This document shows positions 3,301-35,171 of a DNA stretch of 64,000 nucleotides, one piece after another. A model generated the notes under the pieces. That model was not told the DNA's origin. It worked only from the letters and a program-made list of their open reading frames with translations, and did no database searches. The DNA lies in assembly GCF_056746865.1 (NCBI RefSeq), contig NZ_CM163382.1. One strand, 5' to 3'. Position numbers and translations under genes: made by a program. Every line of letters starts with the position of its first letter. The first letter of the stretch is position 1.

Positions 3301-5100
3301 ATGACGACACAGGTCCCACCTTCCGCGTTGCTTCCGTTGAACCCGGAGCAACTGGCACGCCTTCAGGCGGCCACGACCGATTTAACTCCCACCCAGCTTG
3401 CCTGGGTTTCTGGCTATTTCTGGGGCGTGCTCAACCAGCAGCCTGCTGCGCTTGCAGCGACGCCAGCGCCCGCCGCAGAAATGCCGGGTATAACTATTAT
3501 CTCCGCCTCGCAAACCGGCAATGCGCGCCGGGTTGCTGAAGCATTACGCGATGATTTATTGGCGGCAAAACTGAACGTTAAGCTGGTGAACGCGGGCGAC
3601 TATAAATTCAAACAAATCGCCAGCGAAAAACTGCTTATCGTGGTGACGTCAACGCAAGGGGAAGGGGAACCGCCGGAAGAAGCCGTCGCGCTGCATAAGT
3701 TCCTGTTCTCCAAAAAAGCGCCGAAGCTGGAAAACACCGCATTTGCCGTGTTTAGCCTCGGCGATAGCTCTTATGAATTTTTCTGCCAGTCCGGGAAAGA
3801 TTTTGACAGCAAGCTGGCGGAACTGGGCGGTGAACGCCTGCTCGACCGTGTCGATGCCGACGTTGAATACCAGGCTGCTGCCATCGAGTGGCGCGCCCGC
3901 GTGGTTGATGTTCTGAAGTCCCGTGCGCCTGTCGCGGCACCTTCGCAATCCGTCGCTACTGGCGCGGTAAATGAAATCCACACCAGCCCGTACAGCAAAG
4001 ACGCGCCGCTGGTGGCGAGCCTTTCGGTTAACCAGAAAATTACCGGGCGTAACTCTGAAAAAGACGTTCGCCATATCGAAATTGACTTAGGTGACTCTGG
4101 CCTGCGTTATCAGCCGGGTGACGCGCTGGGCATATGGTATCAGAACGATCCGGCACTGGTGAAAGAACTTGTCGAACTGCTGTGGCTGAAAGGCGATGAA
4201 ACTGTCACCGTTGACGGCAAAACGCTGACCCTGAGCGAAGCGCTCCAGTGGCACTTTGAACTGACCGTCAACACCGCCAACATTGTTGAGAACTACGCCA
4301 CGCTTACCCGCAGCGAAACGCTGCTGCCGCTGGTGGGCGATAAAGCGAAGTTACAGCATTACGCCGCGACCACGCCGATTGTTGACATGGTGCGTTTCTC
4401 TCCGGCGCAACTGGATGCCGAAGCGCTGATTAATCTGCTGCGCCCGCTGACCCCGCGCCTGTATTCCATCGCCTCCTCGCAGGCGGAAGTCGAGAACGAA
4501 GTGCACGTTACCGTTGGTGTGGTGCGTTACGACGTGGAAGGCCGCGCCCGTGCGGGTGGTGCCTCCAGCTTCCTCGCGGATCGTGTGGAAGAAGAGGGTG
4601 AAGTCCGCGTCTTTATCGAACATAACGATAACTTCCGCCTGCCAGCCAATCCGGAAACGTCGGTGATTATGATTGGCCCAGGCACCGGCATCGCGCCGTT
4701 CCGCGCCTTTATGCAGCAACGCGCCGCCGACGAAGCGCCGGGGAAAAACTGGCTGTTCTTTGGCAACCCGCACTTTACGGAAGATTTCCTCTACCAGGTG
4801 GAATGGCAGCGCTACGTCAAAGAGGGCGTGCTGACGCGTATCGATCTTGCCTGGTCGCGCGATCAAAAAGAAAAAATTTACGTACAAGACAAACTGCGCG
4901 AACAGGGCGCGGAGCTGTGGCGCTGGATCAATGACGGTGCCCACATTTATGTCTGCGGCGACGCTAATCGCATGGCGAAAGATGTTGAGCAGGCACTTCT
5001 GGAAGTGATTGCCGAATTTGGTGGCATGGACACCGAAGCGGCGGATGAATTTTTAAGTGAGCTGCGCGTAGAGCGCCGTTATCAGCGAGATGTCTACTAA
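3301..5100 (+). CDS. cysJ: Sulfite reductase [NADPH] flavoprotein alpha subunit
   Basis: 599 aa ORF with an N-terminal flavodoxin-like segment and a C-terminal FAD/NADPH reductase region ([20 protein letters not shown]); stop overlaps the cysI start. Confidence 0.95.
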
Positions 5101-17162: not shown

Positions 17163-18014
17163 TCACTGTGCAGTTTTCGCTGATCGATTTTCAGCTCTAA
17201 ATTCAAGAACCGTTTCAATATTTCTTTCCTTCAGCATATCAATAACATTTTTATTCATTTGACTATCACTGGTTAATAACTGGTAAACGTTGCTTCTCTC
17301 TTTATCAGAATTTTCTTTAACAGCTGCTTTGCATGCCAAATGCTTATTGAAATTTTCTACATCGCTAGTACAGGAATTTACGGCTGCTGATGAAATATCA
17401 GACGCTGAAGAAACACCATCATCCAAACGTTTTATAGCATTTTCTATACATGAGTTAAGGGAATAAACGACAACTGAGCGATACCCTTCAGACGCACACC
17501 ATTCTAAATTTCTTGAAGGATCGAGTGGTTTTACTTCGCTGGATTGAATTAACTTGTCAAAAACTGACTTATATTCAATCTGTTTTTTATCTATAGCCCA
17601 TACTTCAGTAGCTGATTTATAATTCCCCGTATGCCTATTAACATCAAATCCATGTTTTATAAGCAAATCTGCCCATGAAAGATTTATTGATTCATTGTTA
17701 TGAGGCCATTTTCCTGTCAGAACCGCCCCCATAGACCCCATATATCCGCCATATGATGGTATAGCACCATGGCTCAGTAACTTCTCAGCAACCACAGGGC
17801 AATTAATTACATAAGAGGCGTAAAGCCCATTCCATAAAGCCCCTCTATAGTAATCGCCACGATTAGGTTCTTTTAAGTCGATAGCCTTTGATAATTGTTC
17901 ACACGTTTTGCATGCATCAAAGTTATCCTTATTGCATTGCAATGAACTGGCGGCTGTAGGATTTACAGAGACTATTGAAAGCACTATGCCAAAAAACAAA
18001 TTTATTTTTTTCAT
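17163..18014 (-). CDS. Secreted Cys-rich protein of unknown function (third gene of cargo operon)
   Basis: 283 aa; N-terminal signal peptide MKKINLFFGIVLSIVSVNPTAAS, multiple Cys pairs, possible ankyrin-like helical repeats (weak); start lies 1 nt after the stop of the 1129 aa gene. Confidence 0.7.
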   Translation of the reverse strand: MKKINLFFGIVLSIVSVNPTAASSLQCNKDNFDACKTCEQLSKAIDLKEPNRGDYYRGALWNGLYASYVINCPVVAEKLLSHGAIPSYGGYMGSMGAVLTGKWPHNNESINLSWADLLIKHGFDVNRHTGNYKSATEVWAIDKKQIEYKSVFDKLIQSSEVKPLDPSRNLEWCASEGYRSVVVYSLNSCIENAIKRLDDGVSSASDISSAAVNSCTSDVENFNKHLACKAAVKENSDKERSNVYQLLTSDSQMNKNVIDMLKERNIETVLEFRAENRSAKTAQ

Positions 18015-18015
18015 C

Positions 18016-21000
18016 CTATTTCATCTGCTCTTCAACTTTATTTAGTAATGGTGATATCGCCCACAGATTCTGAAAAGGTAGCATTTTACGGACAGCGTGG
18101 GTTTGCTGGCTGTCAAATTCTCCGTTAAGTACACCATTTGCAACCGTCGCGGCATCACCGCCAAGATCAAAGGTAGGACCAAGTAAAGCACCAATAGCAT
18201 TACGACTCTGAAACCTTGATACCGGAGGCGCACCAAACATCGCGCCAAGACCAAACCTACCGCCGCTTATGTTCTCAACGGTATTCAGCGGCTCAGAGAG
18301 CCAGCCAAGCATTCCGCCCCGGTCGATCCCCTCTTTCACAAGGTTATTCCAGCTGTAGTCGATATCGCGACCGCTTAACTTCTGTTTCATCATATAGACC
18401 ATTGAGCCAAGCGCAATCGTGCCAAGCGCACCAAGATAGAATGAAGCATCGCCCTGCTGGATACCAGATACCAACACCCTGTTATGCTGTGCGAAGATAA
18501 ACGTTTTGAACTGCGTGATCATCTTCCAGCCTTCTTTACTAAAAAACAGCGGTGTATCACCTACGCCAGGCGTTACAATCACTGAGTCTACATCTTTCAG
18601 CACTGCAGACTGGAAAATCTCTCTAGCGAAACGGTCATCCCACAGATGACTATGCCCGGTTAACAGCCCGTCCATATCCTCTCCGTGCTTCCCGAATTGC
18701 TCCCCGATTCGGCGCAGAACATCTTCATTGATGCCGACCTGTGCCATCTTCCGCATTTCACTTTTGGCGAGCGTGCCACCAGCAGAAACCTGGCGAGCCG
18801 CGTCAAGTATCCTCGACTGCACTATCATCCCGGACCATGATTTAAGTGCGCTGTTCCACTGATTCATCAGCGTCCAGTTACCGAATTTCTGCGTCATCCA
18901 GTTCAGGCCTCGCTCAGCGGCGCTTCTCCGGCTATAGGGGTCAGTAAGATCCGCTATAGCCTTTGTACGCGTAGACAGGACATAATCAAGCCCAACGGCC
19001 ATTTCTCGCAAATCCCTGGTTGCAATTTTCACTGAGTCCATATTTTTAAGCATGCTTACCATTGGTCCGAGAGATTTTCTCAGGCCATGCTGCATCATCG
19101 GTCGCATCAGATCAGTTGCAGCGGAGACGGTCATTCCACCAAGCAAACGGAGGAAGTTAATATTCCTAGCAACTCGCCCGGCACGAACAAAGAAACTGCG
19201 TGGATCTTGAGGTGCGCCGTAAGTACCAAGCAGTCGGTCACGCATAGCCGTAATATCCCTAATATCAGCCTCCCGTTGCTTCTCAAGAGCTGCACGTCGT
19301 TTAGGTGTTTTAGCCTCTTTTATTAGCCGGGTATATTCCTCACTAACCTGACGGATTTGCTCCCCCATATCTTTACGGCCAAACTGCGCAGTCAGCTCAA
19401 TTTCTGGTGCCACCTGCCGGAGATAACTTTCCATGATGTAGTTAACATCTGATTCAAGAAAATCTTCTATACGCTCATCAGGAATAAGCAGCGTTCGGCT
19501 TTTAGTGAAACCAGCCCGACCAACGAGTCTCTCTGGGATAATATCGGCTGGTACAAGCCCGGAAGGTGCGCCTATTATTTTATTCACGATCTCGTCAGCA
19601 GCGTCCTCTGCTTCCTCTCGGGATAGAGGCTCCATCTGCTTCAGTGCTCGCTCGCGGCTTGCATTCAGCCTTGTGGTTGAATTTGCCCGTTTTTGCAGTC
19701 GGCGAAGCTCAGAACGATATTTCCGTGGATTATCCAGCAACTCCATATGGCGCTGATAGACAGGAAGCTCACTCTTTGCCTGCGCTATATCATCAAGGCG
19801 TGTTTTAAGGTCAGAGCTTTCTTTCATCATTCTTGCCTGAAGTTTTTCTGATGAAGTCTCGGCCAACTCTTTTTCTATTCTTGTAAGACGCGCCTGTGTG
19901 TCAGTCTCCTGAGATATAAGCTTATTTCGTTTATCCAGTTCTTCCATGAGTAGAATTTTTTTACCAGACCATTTCTCCGCTTCAGCGATTTCACTAGCGA
20001 GAGCATCAGCGCGCGGTGCCGATTCCTCTGCAGTTTTTAGCAATGAATTTATCCTTTCAATTCGCTGACCTGCTTTGTCAGCACCTTTGGCACTAATCCC
20101 TTGTATCCAGTTGGCAATTCGCCCTCTGAATTCAGTGCGGTCGGAAAGTATCTTATCGAACTTATAAATGCGGGGAAGATAACTTTTCGCCGTCACGACA
20201 TCGATATCCTCAGGAAGGATCCCCAGTTCCTGCATACGGGCTTTTGTGGTCTCGAAAATGGGGCGGATTCTGGCGGCTGCTTGTGAAACCTCAGGAATAT
20301 CACTCTGATCACCACGGCGCATAGCCATGCCAACAGCTTCATTGAAATCAATAAAGCTCATCCTCTTCACGCCGCGGGCGCTGACAGATTTGCTGTACTG
20401 CTGGTAAGCATCACGAGTGGCTTCCATCTGCTTATAAAGCATGGCGTCGTATTGCTTAATCTTAGTCTCGACTGCCGTAAACGTAGCCAACCCCTCATCA
20501 TTTTTGGCGAAGAAATAGTTATTTTCGGCAAGCTGCTGGTTAATCTGACGGGAGACAAGAGATGGTGATTGCGCCAAGCGGCCAGCAGGAGTGACACTCA
20601 ACGTTTTGTTAGCAAGTCCAAGTCCAGCGAGCTGTTCCTGATCGAGTGTGGTATTGAAAACCTGAGCTGCACCAATGCTTTGAGGAGAATCCATACCTCG
20701 CAAATGATTACCTACTGAGTTAACCACTGCCTCGCGCGCGCTAGGTCCAGCAAGTAGCTGTGCACCAGCACCAAGGATCCCACCAACGAGAGCATCAACA
20801 ACAACGTTCGATACGCTCTCCATCGGTGAGCGAGCTTCCTGAGTGGCCTGCAATGCGGCCTCTGAAGCAACACTGCCAGCAGCATTGGCTAAAGCAAAAC
20901 GTCCGGCTGTTTCTGCAATACGACCGCCACGAACGACAGCGCCGAACGGAATAAACATAGAAATCGCATTGAATGGATCTGCTAATCTCATTGCTACAGA

Positions 21001-21405
21001 AGAGACTGTACCAGCAAATCCCAAGCCTGAATTGTATTCCATGTCAGCTCTCTGCTGATCGATTCGATGTTTAATTGCCATTGTTTCTTCAGGCGAACCG
21101 GAGTTGATAAACGAATCTGCAAAATCTTCATAGCCTTTAATATCTGCTGCATCGTTATCAAATGGGTTATATCCTTCAATCCTGTCAAACTGACTGAAAG
21201 GAGCACTGGCAATAAAGCTACCCAGCGTGTTATCTATACGAAATGCTGCTTGTCTAGACCTTTGAACGCGTTGATCACTGGTAAATGGGTTCACAGCAGA
21301 AAGCAAAGAAGGTGTTTCCATATAGAAATTACTGTCATCAGGTGCTGCTATTTGCTGAATATCCTCGCCAAGCAACTCTTTAGGATCCTGTTCATATATC
21401 GGCAT
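18016..21405 (-). CDS. Very large protein of unknown function (1129 aa; second gene of cargo operon)
   Basis: Long uninterrupted ORF; small-residue-rich hydrophobic segments (GAGAQLLAG, GALGTIALGSMVYMM, GLGAMFGAPP), long coiled-coil-like Glu/Lys/Arg/Gln-rich stretches, no P-loop or HExxH motif. Start codon overlaps the stop of the upstream 915 aa gene (TAATG). Confidence 0.75.
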   Translation of the reverse strand: MPIYEQDPKELLGEDIQQIAAPDDSNFYMETPSLLSAVNPFTSDQRVQRSRQAAFRIDNTLGSFIASAPFSQFDRIEGYNPFDNDAADIKGYEDFADSFINSGSPEETMAIKHRIDQQRADMEYNSGLGFAGTVSSVAMRLADPFNAISMFIPFGAVVRGGRIAETAGRFALANAAGSVASEAALQATQEARSPMESVSNVVVDALVGGILGAGAQLLAGPSAREAVVNSVGNHLRGMDSPQSIGAAQVFNTTLDQEQLAGLGLANKTLSVTPAGRLAQSPSLVSRQINQQLAENNYFFAKNDEGLATFTAVETKIKQYDAMLYKQMEATRDAYQQYSKSVSARGVKRMSFIDFNEAVGMAMRRGDQSDIPEVSQAAARIRPIFETTKARMQELGILPEDIDVVTAKSYLPRIYKFDKILSDRTEFRGRIANWIQGISAKGADKAGQRIERINSLLKTAEESAPRADALASEIAEAEKWSGKKILLMEELDKRNKLISQETDTQARLTRIEKELAETSSEKLQARMMKESSDLKTRLDDIAQAKSELPVYQRHMELLDNPRKYRSELRRLQKRANSTTRLNASRERALKQMEPLSREEAEDAADEIVNKIIGAPSGLVPADIIPERLVGRAGFTKSRTLLIPDERIEDFLESDVNYIMESYLRQVAPEIELTAQFGRKDMGEQIRQVSEEYTRLIKEAKTPKRRAALEKQREADIRDITAMRDRLLGTYGAPQDPRSFFVRAGRVARNINFLRLLGGMTVSAATDLMRPMMQHGLRKSLGPMVSMLKNMDSVKIATRDLREMAVGLDYVLSTRTKAIADLTDPYSRRSAAERGLNWMTQKFGNWTLMNQWNSALKSWSGMIVQSRILDAARQVSAGGTLAKSEMRKMAQVGINEDVLRRIGEQFGKHGEDMDGLLTGHSHLWDDRFAREIFQSAVLKDVDSVIVTPGVGDTPLFFSKEGWKMITQFKTFIFAQHNRVLVSGIQQGDASFYLGALGTIALGSMVYMMKQKLSGRDIDYSWNNLVKEGIDRGGMLGWLSEPLNTVENISGGRFGLGAMFGAPPVSRFQSRNAIGALLGPTFDLGGDAATVANGVLNGEFDSQQTHAVRKMLPFQNLWAISPLLNKVEEQMK

Positions 21406-24152
21406 TATTTGCCCCCTGCGTATATATTGCTCGGAAGGTAATTGGCTGAACCATAACCGAATGGTTTGGTCAGATCTGGAGGAGTATATCCATCTTTATT
21501 GCTGAACTGCGGCAGCGGATTGCCTTCTCTCCGCACTCTAGCCTCATCAACACGCTGTTGCTGGAACTGAATGGTTTGCCTGTACATTGGAGATGTCAGC
21601 TGATCCGGCTTGAAACGAACAGGGAGACCATTTTCTCCAATATAATTTCTCGGTTCTATCGCTCCGTTTGCGTCAGGCTGTAAAACCATAACAGCATAAC
21701 TCCTATCCCTTGCCGTAAGGCCATCAGAAACAAGTATTAAGTCCGTATCACTGCGAGGACCGCCAAAGGATTTTGATTTAAGCTCGCGTTTTTCCTGCTC
21801 CCACTGCCCCTGTATCCAGTTACCAGCACCATTATTTACTCCGTACAATGCCTCAGGTGCATACTTCATAACCTCTGCTTTGCCATTAACCGTAGAAACT
21901 CCCCAGGTGGTTCTGATCATGGCATTGGTCATTTTCTCAGCCTGTTCTGCATCGCCACCTGTCTGTACAAAGTTAGCATCGTAAATTGTCTGGTAATCTC
22001 GCTGATAGGCCGCATTTGATTTTCCTGGATCGGTAATATCCGGAGACCACGAACCAAAGGAAGTCAGACTGCTGGCGTTATTTTGTGCAGCAGTTACCCT
22101 CGCCGCGACATATTTTTTGTCTCGCATGGCAGTGGAAAGCATCTGTTTCATTCGGTCATCCTGTTGGAACACCTGACTGTAAGCCATATCAACAGCCTTA
22201 TCCTCCGGCACGCCAGCGCGGGAATAATCGTAAACCTTGCCATAAAATGCCATCGTACTTTTATCAAGTGTTGCCGCTGCCGCCGGATTATTATCGAATA
22301 ACTGACCGTAGAATTTTGCCATCGGGACAACCAGCGCAGGATCTCTTGATGTTGCTCCACTGTTAAGCATTGTTTTAACCTGAGTTGGTATCATGCCGCT
22401 TTTAGTTGTGACGGTGACCAGTGTATTGATGCTCTGCGGATCAGATATGGAAAACGAAGGCGCGATATCCTGCGCGAAATAACGGTCTACCGCTGCCTGA
22501 TTGTTTTTGTCGTTCGGGTCCAGCGGGAAGTTATTTTGCATTGAAGACACGAACCTGTTTCTTCCCTGCTGAATCTCCCACTCCCTATCCATCTCTTTAA
22601 ATTTGGCCTGCATTTTCTCCCAGCGTTGCTGGTTAGCAGCAAATCCAGGAGCATTTGGATCCTGTGGACGTAAACGTTCAAGAATGTCTTGTCGTCCTTC
22701 TGGAGTGAGGTCTTTAGCGGCACCAATGACACCTCCATATTGTATCTGCGCCTGCATATCCTTCCACTTCATAGCGCCAATGCGCGGACCATTGGCCCGG
22801 ATAAAATCGTCCTCAGAAGGTAACTTCTCAGGTTTCAATCCTTCATCAAGGGCTGAATATGCATCTTTAACTACGGTGCTAAGCTGGTCCGCATACTGCT
22901 GGCGGTACTGATTTCTCAGCTCATTAGCCTGCCTCAATGCCTGTATTTGCATTTGAGGGCTCATAGCATCAAATGCCGCATTGCCCGTATAACGCTTAGG
23001 TGAATCAAGGTTAGTTAGACCAAGGGCTGCCGAGATACCAGTTTCAAGCTGTTCGGTGCTATAAGGCATACTGCCATTTTCGTGTTTAATAATCCCAGCA
23101 CATAAAGCAGCTAGTGTCTTTGGGTTAGAGATATCAAGCTGATCATTCTCCCCAACACCAAGCTCACCACACAATGCCCTAATATAAGCATCAGTATTAT
23201 TACCATCACTAGCCGGAGCATAGCGATTAACAATCTCGCTAACGGTGTCATAGCCTTGACGCTGGTAAGACAACATATTTTTACCCAACGCGCGGATTCC
23301 ATGCTCAGGGGTAGCAAACGTTGCAAAACGTCCATCGCTACCGATCTGACCTTCCCACGGGTTAGATTTGCTCGCTTCAATATTACCAGGGTTATTATTA
23401 CGTAAACCACGAGCATCCAATGAATTACCATGTGATATTGCACGACTCACACCATCAAGATCCCCTGGCTCTCCATTAACCTGAAGAAACTCGTTGTATT
23501 TTTGAGCGATATTTCCTATCCATGCTTGCTGCCCCATTTGTTCCTTGAGCTGAGTTTTCTGCTGAACACGCCACTCATCAGGAAGCCCATGCGCATCAGC
23601 GTATTGATCAATAGATTCAAATCGCTGCTTGGCTAAATCGACAAATGCTTGGTTATAGCTATATAGCCCCGCAGACTGAGTGACAGCCAATGCATTTCCT
23701 GACAAATACGTTTGATCTTGGAATTGCTGAAACTGCCCAACTTCATATCGACGTGCCTGATTGTAATAAGACTGCATAGACTGCTGGAGTTGAAAGGATA
23801 ATTTATTCCTTTCCTCACTTTCAGGGATTGAGCCTAATAATGCCTGAGCCCTTTCCTGCATATTTTTCATAACAGCGTCACTCTGACCAAGAGCGTTTTT
23901 ACCCTGTTTAGAAATCAGCCCATTTTCAGGGTTGTTAATCTGGTCATCTGCAAATTGGTTAAATTGCAGTAACGCCTCCTGGGCCATAGCAACATTCGCT
24001 TTCTGCCTGGCTTCACCATATGCCACCGCATACTGATCTGCGACATTCGCCAGCACCTGACCTGCTTGAGGAACATCGAAGGTCTGAAAACCACCGGTTT
24101 GCACACCACGACTTTGCACCTGGCGTCCGGATGTAGTAGGAACAACAAGCAT
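21405..24152 (-). CDS. Very large protein of unknown function (915 aa; first large gene of cargo operon)
   Basis: Long ORF preceded by strong SD (AGGAGGT 6 nt upstream); Gln/Ala-rich helical protein with a central block RNNNPGNIEASKSNPWEGQIGSDGRFATFATPEHGIRALGKNMLSYQ that looks like a conserved domain I cannot assign. Confidence 0.75.
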   Translation of the reverse strand: MLVVPTTSGRQVQSRGVQTGGFQTFDVPQAGQVLANVADQYAVAYGEARQKANVAMAQEALLQFNQFADDQINNPENGLISKQGKNALGQSDAVMKNMQERAQALLGSIPESEERNKLSFQLQQSMQSYYNQARRYEVGQFQQFQDQTYLSGNALAVTQSAGLYSYNQAFVDLAKQRFESIDQYADAHGLPDEWRVQQKTQLKEQMGQQAWIGNIAQKYNEFLQVNGEPGDLDGVSRAISHGNSLDARGLRNNNPGNIEASKSNPWEGQIGSDGRFATFATPEHGIRALGKNMLSYQRQGYDTVSEIVNRYAPASDGNNTDAYIRALCGELGVGENDQLDISNPKTLAALCAGIIKHENGSMPYSTEQLETGISAALGLTNLDSPKRYTGNAAFDAMSPQMQIQALRQANELRNQYRQQYADQLSTVVKDAYSALDEGLKPEKLPSEDDFIRANGPRIGAMKWKDMQAQIQYGGVIGAAKDLTPEGRQDILERLRPQDPNAPGFAANQQRWEKMQAKFKEMDREWEIQQGRNRFVSSMQNNFPLDPNDKNNQAAVDRYFAQDIAPSFSISDPQSINTLVTVTTKSGMIPTQVKTMLNSGATSRDPALVVPMAKFYGQLFDNNPAAAATLDKSTMAFYGKVYDYSRAGVPEDKAVDMAYSQVFQQDDRMKQMLSTAMRDKKYVAARVTAAQNNASSLTSFGSWSPDITDPGKSNAAYQRDYQTIYDANFVQTGGDAEQAEKMTNAMIRTTWGVSTVNGKAEVMKYAPEALYGVNNGAGNWIQGQWEQEKRELKSKSFGGPRSDTDLILVSDGLTARDRSYAVMVLQPDANGAIEPRNYIGENGLPVRFKPDQLTSPMYRQTIQFQQQRVDEARVRREGNPLPQFSNKDGYTPPDLTKPFGYGSANYLPSNIYAGGK

Positions 24153-24580: not shown

Positions 24581-24785
24581 CTGTGCTTACTTCTGGTAGT
24601 TACGCCATACTGATTTCCCGATCCCATCTATCCCCATTTCTTTTTCAGTGCGTTTAAGCGACCGTTTCAGGTCTTCTAAATTATCCGGTTGCTTCGGTGG
24701 CCTCTGTGCCTTCCTGGAACATTCCAGTCGTCGCATTGATATTTGACATCCTCCACGCCCTGAAGGACGTGGATTCCTGCTACGT

Positions 24786-25994
24786 TCAGGCTGTCGCCTG
24801 AATCATTTCGGTGGGTTCCTGCTTCAACGGGCGGCCTGACTGCACCATCCCTCCACAGGCAAGAACGGCGTGCCCCGCCGCTAAAATGTTACGAGCGCCG
24901 TTTACATCGGCGTTCGCTGTATATCCACATACCTGGCATCTGAATTGACTTTGTGACAGGCGATTTTCTTTCGCTGTATGACCACAGCACGCGCAACGCT
25001 GGCTTGTGTACGCTGGCGGAACAGCAAGCACCTGACCGCCACACCAGAGCTGCTTGTACTCAAGCTGACGGCGCATTTCATACCAGCCCTGATCCAGTAT
25101 CGAACGGTTTAAACCTGATTTTGCCCGGACATTGCGCCCCGGCTGGCTGACCGTACCCGAGGCTGACTTTGACATGTTGCTGACCTTCAAATCCTCAATG
25201 ACTATCATTGCGTGGTTTTTGCTGATGGTCGTTGTGACTTTGTGAAGGTAGTCCCTGCGGATATTTGCGATACGGGAATGCAGTCGCTGTATTTTGCGTT
25301 TCTGCTTCTGCCAGTTGTTGCTGAATTTAACCTTGCGGCTTAACTGGCGCTGAAGTCTCGCCAGCTTCTTCTGGTTTTTATGAAAACTGTTTACAGGCTC
25401 AAAGACCGTGCCATCTGACAGCGTGGCGAGTTTAGCCACGCCAGCATCCAGCCCGACCATTAATGCTGAAGGGTGAACCGGAGTTGATACTTCACTTTCT
25501 GTCTGAATACTGATGTACCACTTACCGCAGGACTGGCTGACAGTGACATTTTTCACAACACCCGTGACCTGACGGCTGTTCCGGTAGCGCATCCAGCCCA
25601 GTTTCGGCAGAAAAATACGGCTGTTTTCCTGATCGAGCTTAACACCCTGCGGATAGCGGAATGCATCATGCTGTCCCCGCTTTTTGAATCGGGGAAAAGC
25701 GGCACGCTTCTGAAAGAAATTTTTGTAGGCTCGCTCAAGGTCTTTCAGTGACTGCTGCAATGGCTGTGAGGGAGAATCTTTAAGCCATTGCGTTTCAGTA
25801 GCATTTTTCCATTCAACCAGCCAGGAAGTCATCTTTGCATAAGAAATATATTTGTTCCCGGCCTCATGATTCTCATTCTGAAGCGCCAGAGCACGATTGA
25901 AAACGAAACGACATGCGCCCGCGAAGCGCCTCATTTCACGCTCCTGTTTTCCATTTGGTCTTAACTGGAATTTGAAAGCTTGTAGTCGTTTCAT
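24786..25994 (-). CDS. tnpB: TnpB (OrfB) RNA-guided nuclease-like protein of IS200/IS605 family
   Basis: 402 aa with a C-terminal zinc finger (CACCGH...CQVCGY) and RuvC-III-like motif (DVNGARNI). Confidence 0.85.
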
Positions 25995-26516: not shown

Positions 26517-26942
26517 TTAAAACGGTATCCCGTCCCCGTACGGATCATCGTGCTGGCCTGTCTGTTGCTTTGCCCTGTTCAGTGCATCAGTAGCCTGCCC
26601 CTGCTGGCCTTTTTTGCCGCCCGGTCGCGCCGTTCGCGCACTGATTACGCTGTCTGCGATAACCTGCCATCCCTGCCTCGTTTCGCCGTTCTGGCCCGTC
26701 CACCAGCTCACCTGCATGTTACCGGCCACGCTCACCAGTTCGCCTTTGTGGTGTTTTGCCAGTGCGTCAGCCTGTCTGCCAAACGCCAGGACGGATAACC
26801 ACATCGTCGCCGTTCCGTCATCTGTCTGATTGCATGGAAGGGGGACCGCCATACTCGCCATCGCCATTTGTGTGCCCTTGCTGGTGGTCTTTAACTGCGG
26901 GTCAGCCACCAGCCGCCCGTAAGCTGATATTTGCGCCGTCAT
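26517..26942 (-). CDS. ssb: Single-stranded DNA-binding protein
   Basis: 141 aa OB-fold-like protein with a Gly/Gln-rich tail ending in the acidic tip DDPYGDGIPF (SSB C-terminal D..IPF signature). Confidence 0.85.
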   Translation of the reverse strand: MTAQISAYGRLVADPQLKTTSKGTQMAMASMAVPLPCNQTDDGTATMWLSVLAFGRQADALAKHHKGELVSVAGNMQVSWWTGQNGETRQGWQVIADSVISARTARPGGKKGQQGQATDALNRAKQQTGQHDDPYGDGIPF

Positions 26943-29580: not shown

Positions 29581-29838
29581 TTATTTCCCGGTGTGAGGTT
29601 CTTCTTTATATTTATGGGCTAACAAATCTGGTAATTGCCTGTATTTATCCTCGGCAATATATTCAGAATAATCGACAGCACTGTTCAGTATATCTAACGC
29701 CGTTTCATGCTCCAGATTCGAAACTATAAGGAACGTTGCTACTTTTAGCATATTCGCGATATGCAAAAGAGCATCAATTTCATTTTTTGGCGCTTCACTG
29801 AATTTTTGCTCCAGAAGAATAAATCGTTCATCACGCAT
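29581..29838 (-). CDS. Hypothetical protein (85 aa)
   Basis: ORF in the same operon, 2 nt upstream of the next gene. Confidence 0.5.
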   Translation of the reverse strand: MRDERFILLEQKFSEAPKNEIDALLHIANMLKVATFLIVSNLEHETALDILNSAVDYSEYIAEDKYRQLPDLLAHKYKEEPHTGK

Positions 29839-30034
29839 AGTATTCCCCCTGACGGATGCGGGCAGTAAATACCATCACGCAGCCAGCCGGGGATTGCTGG
29901 CGTGCTTCCTGTTCGCTGGTGGCCACGATGGTAATCACACGCGGTTTTGCGGCGCTCAGGGCGATAAAACGCCAGGCGAATTTATTCAGGTTGTGCGAAT
30001 CCCGCCCTTGCGGGTGTATGGTATGATTTCTCAT
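29831..30034 (-). CDS. Hypothetical protein (67 aa), first gene of replication operon
   Basis: C-terminal part of the spurious 415 aa ORF 29831..31078; start ATG at 30034 is preceded by GAGGT and overlaps the next gene by 8 nt. Confidence 0.45.
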   Translation of the reverse strand: MRNHTIHPQGRDSHNLNKFAWRFIALSAAKPRVITIVATSEQEARQQSPAGCVMVFTARIRQGEYYA

Positions 30035-30130
30035 AGCTACCTCGATACTCTCGTTATCGTTGGTGGTTAGAAGCCCTGCGAGTGGTAACGACACTTGCGG
30101 GGCTTTGTTTTTTGTTGCACTTACTGTTAA

Positions 30131-30174
30131 TGTACGTACGTAATATTGATGATAATAGGAGTTACGTACGTACA
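30131..30174. promoter_or_regulatory. Operator: inverted repeat tgtacgtacgtaa-N18-ttacgtacgtaca in divergent promoter region
   Basis: 13-bp arms, each containing the self-complementary octamer GTACGTAC; the right arm overlaps the start codon of the RHH gene. Confidence 0.5.
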
Positions 30175-30365
30175 TGTCAACATTAAAGCGGGATAAATCA
30201 CCACGCGGCGAGGGATGGTCGCCGACATTCCAGATACGAATTAGCAAAGAACTACGCCAGCAAGTAAACGAGGCAGCAACCGCCGATGGCCTAACCCTCG
30301 GCAATTGGTTTAAAGAATTAGCTCGTGCCGAACTAAAGCGACGCGGCATTGAACCTAAAGGCTGA
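30174..30365 (+). CDS. Ribbon-helix-helix (Arc/Mnt/CopG-like) DNA-binding protein, candidate repressor
   Basis: 63 aa; FQIRISKELRQQVNEAATADGLTLGNWFKELARAEL fits the beta-strand/helix/helix RHH pattern; it sits on the palindromic operator. Confidence 0.55.
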   Translation: MSTLKRDKSPRGEGWSPTFQIRISKELRQQVNEAATADGLTLGNWFKELARAELKRRGIEPKG

Positions 30366-30551
30366 TGTATGACTGAAAAGCAGACCGATAACAAACTTTC
30401 TCTACCAGAGAATAAACCAGCAGGCTTCTTACCAAGAAAAATCCTTGATGAGATCAAACGCCGCCAGCGGCGCAAGGCCAAAGAGCAGGAGTAACCATCA
30501 CCAGCGCCGTGGTGCGGTGAACTGTGGCGCACAGGGTTACAGGTATCTACG

Positions 30552-30749
30552 ATGACTGACAAATCATTAAAGAAATTATCCTCATCCAGGAAAAAACAAC
30601 GCAAAAATGCGGTAAGCGAACAAGAACAGGAAAGATTTGCGCCATGTGCGTTTGTCCTTGAGAAGTTCTTAAAAGAGTACAGGCGCACAAAAATGGAATC
30701 GCATACCTGGAAAACATCGCAGTATGGCGATGCTAAAGAGCAGGAATAG
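30552..30749 (+). CDS. Hypothetical basic protein (65 aa)
   Basis: ORF only; weak support. Confidence 0.3.
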   Translation: MTDKSLKKLSSSRKKQRKNAVSEQEQERFAPCAFVLEKFLKEYRRTKMESHTWKTSQYGDAKEQE

Positions 30750-30917
30750 CCCACCAGCAAGCCAGCACACTGATCACATTGCCCACCAGCCGCAAATCTG
30801 GCATTGTTGGCGATGCGTTTGATTTCCTTTGTTCCCACTGGCGACCTATCCCGGTCGCCTTTGTTTTGCCTGTTATCCAGCAACGGGGCGCTTTTTCTTT
30901 CTGTAACGTTCGGATCG

Positions 30918-31475
30918 TTACACATTGCTTTCACCCTCCAGAAAATCAGGCTGATATTTACGCCATAGCGCCCGCTCTTCTCGTTCCAGTGCATCTTTTG
31001 CCTCTTTGCATTGCTGTAACCTGTAACCGCGTTTGCTGGCTTCCTGTTGATATGCAGCCTGACGTTTACTGAAATCATTCAGCATGGCAAACGGAACACC
31101 ATAACCCCCCGTTTTGCGGATTGAAGGAATCACCTCGCGGAATACCCAGTTACTGAAACGGTGCGCAAATGTGCCTGGTGTGGAAGCTTTACGGCTGCGG
31201 GCGATCAGTTTGTAGAAACCTGATTCAGAGACAACATTCCAGCTTCTGGCACCACCACGCTTACCGGAATGACCCTCGGTTAAAGCTAGGGTCATTACCT
31301 CATCGTTATCCAGAACTGAAACGGCATCAGTAACATTGCTGATTTCCAGCGCGGCACACACATCAGCGCCAACAAACCACGGCTCGCCGTTGATACTCAC
31401 TATGCGCACCTGAATGTCATCGAATTTAATGACAGAGATTTCAGTGCGACCGGCATAAAAGACAGGTTTACGCAT
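30918..31475 (-). CDS. Bro-N domain protein (phage antirepressor-like)
   Basis: 185 aa; N-terminal Bro-N-like segment FDDIQVRIVSINGEPWFVGADVCAALE. Confidence 0.7.
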   Translation of the reverse strand: MRKPVFYAGRTEISVIKFDDIQVRIVSINGEPWFVGADVCAALEISNVTDAVSVLDNDEVMTLALTEGHSGKRGGARSWNVVSESGFYKLIARSRKASTPGTFAHRFSNWVFREVIPSIRKTGGYGVPFAMLNDFSKRQAAYQQEASKRGYRLQQCKEAKDALEREERALWRKYQPDFLEGESNV

Positions 31476-32367: not shown

Positions 32368-32565
32368 TCAGGCAGCCGTTCCGCGTGATTCGGCAATACG
32401 CTGATTGATCCATTCGTCAATTTCACTTTCAACGAAAGCAATCGCTCGCGAGCCAATTTTAACTGATGCAGGAAATTTACCTTGCCCCATAAGGCGATAA
32501 ATCCATGCCTTGCTATATCCAGTTCTACGCTGAACTTCTGTTAAACGAATAAGCGTATTTGACAT
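32368..32565 (-). CDS. alpA: AlpA-family transcriptional regulator / excisionase-like protein
   Basis: 65 aa with the MerR-like HTH pattern of AlpA (LIRLTEVQRRTGYSKAWIYRLM...SEIDEWINQR). Confidence 0.8.
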   Translation of the reverse strand: MSNTLIRLTEVQRRTGYSKAWIYRLMGQGKFPASVKIGSRAIAFVESEIDEWINQRIAESRGTAA

Positions 32566-32668
32566 CTATTTACCTCATAACGTCTACTCAATTTGACGAG
32601 GTAATCATGGCACAGAAATAACGAATATTTTCATACCCTCAGGCCTAATGGTTACCGGAAGGAAATTA

Positions 32669-32777
32669 ACCCTAAGGGTGATGGTAATCGGGAGGAAATC
32701 TACCCTAAGGGTGATGGTAAAATTGACGGGGAAGATAAAAAAATACCCTCAGGGTAACAGTAAATCACCCTCAGGGT
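32669..32777. promoter_or_regulatory. Array of four palindromic sites ACCCT(A/C)AGGGT upstream of alpA
   Basis: Copies at 32669, 32702, 32745 and 32767; the first two are embedded in a longer direct repeat (accctaagggtgatggtaa). Confidence 0.45.
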
Positions 32778-32792
32778 ATGCGGTATGGTGCG

Positions 32793-33596
32793 TTAATCCG
32801 GCTTTGCGTTCTTTTGGCTGTTGTCTCGGTTAATAGGGCAGGCAGTCCTCTCTATGAGCGTTGCAAGAGCATTACTTGCCCCCCACTGCTTAAGCTCCCT
32901 AGTTATCGCTTCTTGATTTCCCCTGGTGGCAAAATCATTTTCTGGATCGTAATTGGCCCACTCTCTGTTTCTAATCTCAATAGCCTTAGCTAATGGGTCT
33001 TTATCCCAGTATTTATATAAGTGTATCGGGCGCTCTTGCTCTAACTGCTCTATCCTTGCCCTTAACTCTGCGTTTTCTCTTTCCAGCATTGCGATTTGGG
33101 ATAATAAATCATCCTCTGTACGCAACTCTTTCTTTTCAATATCGCGTCCTTGTACCTCGTCATTTTCAGAAGAGTTAGCGCCTTCCAGCTTCGTTAACGC
33201 GTCAAGGACATCGGGAAAAATTGCGAAAATTTCACCCCTTATAAATCCAATGTTCTCAAATTCGGGATCTTCCCAATAACCGGACACCAGAAAACCATTT
33301 TCATCCCTCTCACCAGGTAAACAACCATGTTTCCGAACCGCATCCAGATTTCTATAAAGAACATCATAATCAAATTCATCCCGATACGGGTTACAAAAAG
33401 ATTCCAACAGCTTAAATTCATTTACTGTGTACAGGCGGATATGTTCTCCGCTTATTCTCCTGAGTATCCAAGTTATGAGATCTGAAACATCATAATCATC
33501 ACCAGCGACCTTAAGCACGACCTCAAGAAATTCACGTAAAGAAATAAAATCTTTTTTGTATTCGTTTAATTCGGCATGAATATCAATCATACGCAC
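32793..33596 (-). CDS. Hypothetical protein (267 aa) between integrase and alpA
   Basis: Acidic protein with a coiled-coil segment (IAMLERENAELRARIEQLEQE); no catalytic motif recognised. Confidence 0.6.
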   Translation of the reverse strand: MRMIDIHAELNEYKKDFISLREFLEVVLKVAGDDYDVSDLITWILRRISGEHIRLYTVNEFKLLESFCNPYRDEFDYDVLYRNLDAVRKHGCLPGERDENGFLVSGYWEDPEFENIGFIRGEIFAIFPDVLDALTKLEGANSSENDEVQGRDIEKKELRTEDDLLSQIAMLERENAELRARIEQLEQERPIHLYKYWDKDPLAKAIEIRNREWANYDPENDFATRGNQEAITRELKQWGASNALATLIERTACPINRDNSQKNAKPD

Positions 33597-33718
33597 ACCT
33601 CAGCGTCCTCTACTGTAGTGGCTGTGCCAGCCCGTCGAGGTATACGGTTTTTCGGGAGCGACCCTAGACACAGCTTTTTCTTTCGTCGCTCAAAGTCTAC
33701 TACTGTATACTCAACCAG

Positions 33719-35097: not shown

Positions 35098-35171
35098 TGG
35101 AGCGGGCGAAGGGAATCGAACCCTCGTATAGAGCTTGGGAAGCTCTCGTTCTACCATTGAACTACGCCCGC
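35098..35171 (-). tRNA. glyU: tRNA-Gly (anticodon CCC)
   Basis: Reverse complement reads GCGGGCGTAGTTCAATGGTAGAACGAGAGCTTCCCAAGCTCTATACGAGGGTTCGATTCCCTTCGCCCGCTCCA: cloverleaf-compatible, anticodon loop CTTCCCAAG, T-loop GGTTCGATTCC, 3' CCA. Confidence 0.9.

Follow-up and report, generated by a model that had tools for sequence, protein, structure and literature searches.

A modular zipper protein between integrase and alpA in an Escherichia coli phage satellite, a candidate gatekeeper of satellite induction

Introduction

On the minus strand of a 64,000-nucleotide stretch of the Escherichia coli chromosome (contig NZ_CM163382.1; the whole stretch is called the window hereafter) lies an open reading frame (ORF), here named X, between a tyrosine integrase gene (int) and alpA, in what its genes suggest to be a phage satellite. 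What does a protein in this position do? An earlier note, made from the sequence alone, had described X as an unassigned acidic coiled-coil protein beside the integrase, in a slot that it took to be variable, and had suggested a single-gene anti-phage or addiction function. In phage-inducible chromosomal islands (PICIs) of Gram-negative bacteria, alpA is the master activator and is induced by the helper phage; no repressor is known for these islands, and the phage signal that activates alpA is unidentified (PMC6092414; PMC11773190). Here, we relate X to its neighbours, to a palindrome array in front of alpA and to an RNA motif, and we propose that X dimerises through a leucine zipper, binds DNA and guards the alpA promoter, with its N-terminal module serving as a sensor, a reading to which we give a probability of roughly 0.55.

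Results

X is a genuine gene of no known family

32793–33590, minus strand: X, 265 amino acids from ATG; no known family

The frame listed in the earlier note (32793–33596, minus strand, 267 amino acids if read from a GTG) is present. RefSeq models the protein with 265 amino acids from an ATG at 33590 (WP_001580987, 'coiled-coil domain-containing protein'). By our own reading of the sequence, a Shine–Dalgarno GAGG stands 7 nt before this ATG and only 2 nt from the GTG; because this spacing suits the ATG, we prefer 32793–33590 as the gene model and consider the 267-residue form unlikely.

X is a genuine gene and not a chance ORF, since near-identical copies are widespread and homologues down to about 20% N-terminal identity retain both frame and synteny. 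The allele was found in 147 of 5426 complete E. coli genomes, with O104:H4 C227-11 and 55989 among them, and 146 of these copies are full-length and near-identical. About 37 genomes carry X with an integrase of the window type at glyU, and about 110 further ones carry the same X and alpA with a different integrase at thrW. A word-indexed search with X returned 31 clusters, and an exhaustive profile search of 1.84 billion representatives returned 93 (60 at E ≤ 1e-10), the named ones all being 'hypothetical'. Hosts of the family are E. coli, Salmonella, Citrobacter, Kluyvera, Pantoea, Dickeya, Xenorhabdus, Photorhabdus, Orbaceae and Aggregatibacter, and a tblastn search of 50,697 phage records found no homologue.

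Searches of Pfam, NCBIfam, PHROGs and PADLOC with X gave no significant match, only coiled-coil noise below the cut-off; none of 67 members among its relatives carries a Pfam domain, and neither the PDB sequences searched with X profiles nor the PDB folds yielded a match. Together with the isoelectric point (pI) of 4.67 (56 Asp and Glu versus 35 Lys and Arg) and the central helix described below, these empty family searches bear out the earlier description of an unassigned acidic coiled-coil protein beside int.

X is linked to alpA and not to the integrase

32368–32565, minus strand: alpA, 65 amino acids; Pfam Phage_AlpA, E 2.4e-19

In every locus fetched, the gene directly upstream of alpA, and co-oriented with it, is X or encodes a module-sharing protein. 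This synteny spans the window, E. coli O104:H4, other E. coli, Citrobacter, Dickeya, Kluyvera, Pantoea, Xenorhabdus, Photorhabdus, Orbaceae and Aggregatibacter. The contexts include the glyU integrase (window and, by our locus numbers, L004 and L071), the thrW integrase (L002, L072), a neighbouring prophage (Citrobacter, L006), Dickeya (L013), and Kluyvera, Pantoea, Xenorhabdus and Photorhabdus (L016–L019). Aggregatibacter islands have capsid and terminase genes of their own, and there X comes after TerS/TerL, with two small ORFs between TerL and X, and no integrase lies nearby. Because the synteny persists with different integrases and without one nearby, X is linked to alpA and not to int. 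The earlier note had proposed a comparison of the slot across islands as a check on its reading; in this comparison X stays with alpA across different integrases and replicases, and in one island type with no adjacent integrase at all.

The slot itself does vary. EcCIMP1, a characterised E. coli PICI, has no gene there, and L009 and L010 hold other proteins, that of L009 with a recognisable but very divergent copy of the C-terminal domain. Slot proteins built from other modules (L009 5390–6172, L010 5340–5930 and L013 4001–4774) show an N-terminus of the type ..TxxEAAxLLAG.. and the C-terminal sequence GKDTALxLIAGxAIALEK...; a repeat motif particular to each precedes alpA, and Pfam gave no match to any of them.

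X is built from three parts

33171–33590, minus strand: N-terminal module of X (about residues 1–140); AlphaFold2 secondary structure with a predicted local distance difference test score (pLDDT) of about 80; pI 4.5
33030–33119, minus strand: leucine zipper of X (residues 158–187); helix in both structure models
32826–33029, minus strand: C-terminal helical domain of X (residues 188–255), from alignments and model; proposed DNA-binding domain

Alignment divides X into an N-terminal module, a leucine zipper and a C-terminal domain. The N-module opens with a conserved MIDI...FISL start, for which AlphaFold2 predicts the order helix-strand-helix-helix-strand-strand, resembling that of a winged helix; the remainder is highly variable, homologues being 20–97% identical to the window protein in this module. 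The central helix covers residues 159–186 in the model. By our own heptad assignment from the sequence, L162, L169, L176 and L183 occupy the d positions and I166, N173 and I180 the a positions, and L169, L176 and L183 are invariant among aligned homologues. The zipper weakly matches bZIP_2 and DivIC in Pfam. In GCN4-type zippers, an asparagine at an a position favours parallel dimers, and it is because of the leucines at four d positions and the asparagine at an a position that we read X as a probable dimer.

The C-domain follows the pattern DPLxxAIxxRNxEW..YDP....AIExVACPIxR, of which AIExVACPIxR is near-invariant, and with 46–100% identity it is far better conserved than the N-module. It is confidently folded in the model (pLDDT 90.9) and near neutral (pI 7.1) inside an acidic protein. 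The two ends of X behave as independent modules in the profile search, which returned many proteins that share only the C-domain behind other N-termini, and others that share only the N-module, joined to either of two further C-terminal domains.

In relatives from Kluyvera, Pantoea, Orbaceae and several IMG/VR contigs, X is split into two ORFs (for example L016 3444–3764, L017, ending at 3749, L020 3075–3395, and L044–L049). ORF1 (106–123 amino acids) corresponds to the N-module, begins right after the leader RNA described below and ends in (EPP)MDFDDDIPF, and ORF2 comprises the middle region, the zipper and the C-domain. The tail of ORF1 matches the C-terminus of E. coli single-stranded DNA-binding protein (SSB) over 12 identical residues (PDB 1EQQ residues 167–178). 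The fused X of the window has no such tail. Since the SSB C-terminal peptide recruits replication, repair and recombination proteins, the identity points to the N-module as a protein-interaction module. Judged by this match, the ORF1 tail appears to be an SSB-tail decoy on a non-SSB protein, and it suggests a class of phage protein that might be sensed. As a separate observation, the island of the window encodes a short SSB of its own (26517–26942, minus strand, 141 amino acids), which ends ...DDPYGDGIPF, a variant of the SSB tail.

The X–alpA spacer carries a phased palindrome array

32767–32777, no strand: palindrome site 1, ACCCTCAGGGT; motif scan
32745–32755, no strand: palindrome site 2, ACCCTCAGGGT; followed by a T run on the minus strand, a weak terminator-like match
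32702–32712, no strand: palindrome site 3, ACCCTAAGGGT; within a 33-bp tandem unit
32669–32679, no strand: palindrome site 4, ACCCTAAGGGT; within a 33-bp tandem unit
32635–32645, no strand: degenerate site 5, GGCCTGAGGGT on the minus strand; promoter-proximal, about 73 nt before the alpA ATG

The spacer between X and alpA is 227 bp long and holds four perfect ACCCTNAGGGT palindromes of 11 bp and a degenerate fifth, the equivalent of which in other genera is a CCCTCATGCYTGAGGG palindrome. Exact ACCCTNAGGGT occurs in the window in 4 copies, all inside 32669–32777. With up to one mismatch, 5 copies were observed against 1.08 expected, a number that none of 100 shuffles reached.

We compared 39 distinct X–alpA spacers from more than 60 loci. 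Enterobacterales spacers that go with the C-domain type of the window have at least one perfect ACCCTNAGGGT and up to 5, except for two Photorhabdus-like spacer types (L019/L051 and L050/L052), which have only variants with two mismatches. Site order and spacing (about 32, 23, 43 and 34 bp) are conserved across genera with diverged sequence between the sites. The observed spacings cluster at 21–23, 29–34, 42–44 and 52–53 bp, multiples of about 10.7 bp, and the sites would therefore lie on one face of the helix. In most spacers with a detected promoter-proximal site, 73–74 nt separate the last site from the alpA ATG. E. coli islands that are otherwise near-identical differ in how many perfect palindromes, carried in 33-bp units, they have, from 3 to 5 (L030, L031 and L037 compared with window 32669–32777).

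32603–32612, minus strand: TGcCAT(G/C)AT(T) block, candidate extended −10 of the alpA promoter; alignment of 12 loci
32570–32604, minus strand: possible hairpin in the alpA 5′ untranslated region, Shine–Dalgarno GAGG paired with CCUC; minimum free energy −8.2 kcal/mol, z −1.05

Downstream of the last site, the TGcCAT(G/C)ATT block might be an extended −10 of alpA, as far as the alignment can suggest; a consensus promoter scan over the alpA-upstream region found no promoter. Different genera keep the arms of the possible hairpin, and L009 has a variant that looks compensatory, but the folding energy of the hairpin is not significant (z −1.05), so that a hairpin here is weakly suggested.

Two other explanations of the palindromes were rejected. 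Against integrase arm sites, the palindromes lie 2.3 kb from the att core and are kept with different integrases and with none nearby. As for terminators, a T run follows one site and is not conserved in other loci.

The repeat motif follows the C-terminal domain

Which island-encoded protein goes with the palindromes? AlpA was rejected as their binder by two loci: in L009, AlpA is 95% identical to that of the window and the spacer has no ACCCT sites, the C-domain being very divergent, whereas in L014 AlpA is only 26% identical and yet the C-domain family and ATCACCCT half-sites are common to both, L014 carrying ATCACCCT/AGGGTGAT half-sites together with ACTATCATAGT. The similarity of L009 to the window breaks 21 bp upstream of alpA. 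C-domain, spacer and alpA promoter are exchanged as one block, like phage immunity cassettes.

Nor does the motif go with the N-module. Where the N-module of the window stands in front of other C-domains, other repeats are found: L011 has five copies of CTACCAAT, and L013 has four to five of CTTCCAA. When the C-domain of the L013 type stands behind a different N-module, in L010, CTTCCA repeats are found again. In the split forms, the ORF with only middle region, zipper and C-domain still adjoins the full array. Altogether, three C-domain types pair with three repeat motifs, and because integrase, replicase, AlpA and the genes around them differ between loci, we found no constant partner of the motif encoded on the island other than the C-domain.

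A leader RNA precedes X

33607–33674, minus strand: Rfam RF02996 'int-alpA RNA'; cmscan score 46.9 bits (gathering score 35.8), full length 1–71

The motif RF02996 was described by Weinberg et al. 2017 (PMC5737381), was named for the flanking int and alpA and has the Rfam type sRNA. In the window, 16 nt separate its end from the start codon of X, and it lies 12–20 nt upstream of the X start in 31 of 34 loci (the window and 30 of 33 others: 12 of the 13 X-bearing loci scanned first and 18 of the 20 loci scanned next). The loci named with this observation are the window, L004, L006, L008, L011, L013, L014, L016–L018, L020 and L039–L072. It precedes X also in the Aggregatibacter islands without an integrase nearby, and it is absent from EcCIMP1, L009 and L010, that is, it is missing where X is missing. 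Since the motif stands before X even with no integrase nearby and is missing together with X, RF02996 is probably a 5′ leader of X and not a feature of int or alpA, in contrast to the Rfam entry of an sRNA named for these two genes. The folding energy of the leader is not significant (z −0.39), and this call rests on the Rfam covariance model. A functional study of RF02996 was not found in the literature, where one paper merely lists the motif.

Discussion

In this study, we found X to be a conserved gene that keeps company with alpA, a phased palindrome array and a leader RNA. How might these parts work together? We propose that the leucine zipper dimerises X and thereby pairs two C-domains, which would read the 11-bp palindromes, ACCCTNAGGGT in this clade. 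The C-domains would occupy 4–6 phased sites. Because the last of them adjoins the alpA promoter, X would control the firing of alpA; AlpA, once on, would start excision and replication of the satellite. The input would come through the exchangeable N-module, which would most likely serve as bait for a protein of the helper phage or of the host and so restrict induction of the island to times when a suitable phage replicates. The structured int-alpA RNA before the start of X would control how much X is made. We tentatively favour X as a repressor lifted by the helper, working like Stl of the Staphylococcus aureus pathogenicity islands (SaPIs), over X as a helper-dependent activator.

The comparison with SaPI Stl (Rpr) has two sides. 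Both proteins are satellite-encoded, next to int and before the induction genes; both join a DNA-binding part, predicted in X, to a highly variable part, which in Stl binds different helper-phage proteins; and both have operators, putative for X, in the adjacent intergenic region, with a proposed logic of silence until a helper arrives. In contrast, no similarity of sequence or fold was found between them, and X falls outside the Stl family. Stl carries an N-terminal helix-turn-helix, while the candidate DNA-binding domain of X is C-terminal and follows the zipper, and Stl is divergent from the operon that it represses, while X is co-directional with alpA in all loci. Further, Gram-negative PICIs have been described as repressor-less and dependent on activation of alpA (PMC6092414), which contrasts with a logic of the Stl type. 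A more far-reaching version of our proposal, in which X is the missing helper sensor of a large group of Gram-negative satellites, with an unseen DNA-binding fold, a zipper, phased operators, tuning by a leader and an exchangeable bait, which in split relatives would be the SSB-tail decoy, a peptide bound by phage recombinases and replication proteins, and in which derepression of the Stl kind evolved independently, is one that we put forward only tentatively and regard as rather doubtful.

Lambdoid immunity cassettes offer a second parallel, as there, too, C-domain sequence, array and promoter region are swapped together and several palindromic operators lie in phase. Unlike X, they involve another protein family, a divergent promoter pair and a cleavage domain of the LexA/CI type, and the presumed target of X is the satellite activator gene alpA. 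A third comparison is suggested by RefSeq, which names some copies of X 'bZIP transcription factor'. Like bZIP proteins of the eukaryotic type, X has a zipper with leucine at d and asparagine at a, and its putative targets are short palindromes with close half-sites. It differs in having no basic region before the zipper, where residues 136–157 are acidic (pI 4.5), and in that its candidate DNA-reading domain is globular, helical and placed after the zipper. Membership of X in the bZIP family was rejected: bZIP_2 scored 14 bits against a cut-off of 22.3, and the basic region is missing.

Three other explanations have to be weighed against the gatekeeper. The one that presses hardest on it is that X is a protein–protein adaptor that does not bind DNA, acting as an interference or anti-helper factor or as a partner of AlpA or RNA polymerase, with the palindromes bound by a host or helper factor and passed on simply along with the 3′ end of X. 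Two points speak for it and weigh against our proposal: X is acidic and has no recognisable DNA-binding fold, and its C-domain coding sequence adjoins the spacer, so that linkage contributes to the correlation of motif and C-domain and could even yield it alone. The invariant extreme C-terminus, ACPIxR, could also be a docking peptide. We nevertheless argue for a functional motif, because motif and phasing persist across genera where the rest of the spacer is unalignable; moreover, the C-domain is the sole constant island partner, with three types for three repeat motifs. An adaptor of this kind therefore seems unlikely to us. We are yet more sceptical of X as an origin-binding initiator in the manner of lambda O, for which the array would be the replication origin and the N-module would recruit replication proteins, using the SSB C-terminal tail in split forms, and we consider this the least probable of the three. 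Repeats numbering 4–6 and about 22–44 bp apart beside the gene of their binder are typical of iteron origins; the promoter-proximal CCCTCATGCYTGAGGG resembles the lambda ori iterons (TCCCTCAAAACGAGGGA); the exact SSB tip MDFDDDIPF closes ORF1 of the split relatives; and the island encodes its own SSB and primase-helicase. However, there is no conserved AT-rich unwinding element between the sites, relatives with the same primase family lack X, and the distance from the array to the alpA start and to conserved promoter-like blocks is fixed. The array also stays with the C-domain of X while the replicase downstream changes from locus to locus (DUF927, AAA_25 helicase or D5_N/DUF5906). Co-variation of N-module and replicase, which would have supported an initiator, was rejected, as the same N-type is found with the AAA_25 helicase in L004 and with DUF927 in L071.

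The remaining alternative takes up the function suggested in the earlier note, with X as stand-alone anti-phage or addiction cargo that senses infection through its variable N-module, the palindromes being unrelated. The N-region has diversified to about 20% identity beside a conserved remainder, a pattern typical of arms-race interfaces; some relatives leave the slot empty or fill it differently; satellites are known carriers of defence genes; and phage proteins of recombination or replication could be disturbed by the SSB-tail decoy of the split forms. Against this, X has no enzymatic, membrane or toxin-like motif, PADLOC-DB 2.0 returned 0 families for it at E up to 10, and the 50,697 phage records searched hold no homologue; X is tightly linked to alpA and not to int, and an operator-like array and a leader RNA accompany it. 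The cargo slot of this island family sits, moreover, at the integrase-distal end, where window 17163–24100 differs between conserved flanks from the sibling island L001, and where the O104:H4 sibling L002 carries PARIS AriA/AriB and L001 four other unknown ORFs. We thus find defence or addiction cargo improbable, though X may have a side role in defence, and the earlier suggestion of such a function is unsupported by the alpA partnership, the array, the leader and the PADLOC search. Of the variable integrase-proximal slot, the variability stands (EcCIMP1, L009, L010 and swaps of the N-module) and the role as main cargo slot does not. The earlier note had also held that clear homology to a housekeeping element protein conserved in all relatives would speak against its reading; X comes close to this, being conserved with alpA across genera, but it is not present in all relatives.

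Taken as a whole, leader RNA, modular protein and operator array appear to form a compact regulatory module in front of alpA that has not been described for a phage satellite, in a family present in at least three orders of Gammaproteobacteria; how the module works is what we propose above. Were the proposal true, it would give a handle on the specificity of satellite induction and on how helper phages switch on Gram-negative PICIs, it would reassign an orphan Rfam motif to a gene, and it would add a DNA-binding domain without known structural relative. Were it wrong, X would stay a conserved unknown in need of an explanation.

Island context and further observations

35098–35171, minus strand: tRNA-Gly(CCC), attachment site of the island; ARAGORN, Rfam tRNA 71.6 bits
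33719–34972, minus strand: tyrosine integrase; Arm-DNA-bind_3, Phage_int_M and Phage_integrase, Pfam E 6e-33 to 2e-26

X begins 128 bp downstream of the tyrosine integrase gene, which adjoins tRNA-Gly(CCC); the RefSeq model of the integrase, from an identical sibling, has 404 amino acids and a start further in. After X follow alpA, antA, genes of the Bro-N and icd-like kinds, DUF4222, a DUF927 primase-helicase, ssb and genes of the proQ/perC type. As in Gram-negative PICIs, int lies by the attachment (att) site, alpA is co-oriented downstream, a primase/replicase is present, the size is about 10–20 kb and lysis and tail genes are lacking; the layout matches that of islands such as EcCIMP1 (PMC11773190). 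Going by its genes, the element that hosts X is thus a PICI-type phage satellite at tRNA-Gly(CCC). An exact att direct repeat of at least 12 bp was not found at the left end of the island. Psu, Sid and Delta, which would mark the psu–int defence hotspot of a P4-like element, are not annotated in the identical sibling island.

With the characterised E. coli PICIs EcCIMP1 and EcCICFT073 the island shares int, alpA, the antA/ash/icd region, DUF4222, the primase and PerC. EcCIMP1 differs in its 427-bp gap between int and alpA, which has neither an X homologue nor ACCCT palindromes. EcCIMP1_002, described as about 10% of the size of UvrB, was rejected as a homologue of X, since tblastn of that gap came back empty.

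Several minor features were seen along the way. A 415-residue ORF at 29831–31078 (minus strand) overlaps small annotated genes and intergenic sequence of the sibling record and is probably not a gene. Sibling islands (L003, L010, L011, L016, L039, L044, L047, L072 and others) carry isrK and C4 antisense RNA, immunity RNAs of the P4/P1 type, between antA/ash and icd; window 30076–30769 gave no match to them at E ≤ 0.1, this segment being replaced relative to L001. The distal slot of the window (17163–24152, minus strand) holds three large co-directional ORFs of 283, 1129 and 915 amino acids, which had no match in Pfam or PADLOC and are a candidate defence system. A TnpB gene (IS605 OrfB / Cas12f-like) is inserted in the island at 24786–25994 (minus strand), and at its 3′ end lies a weak match to an HgcC-family RNA (24730–24853, minus strand; 27.3 bits, E 0.008), which may be a guide (omega) RNA.

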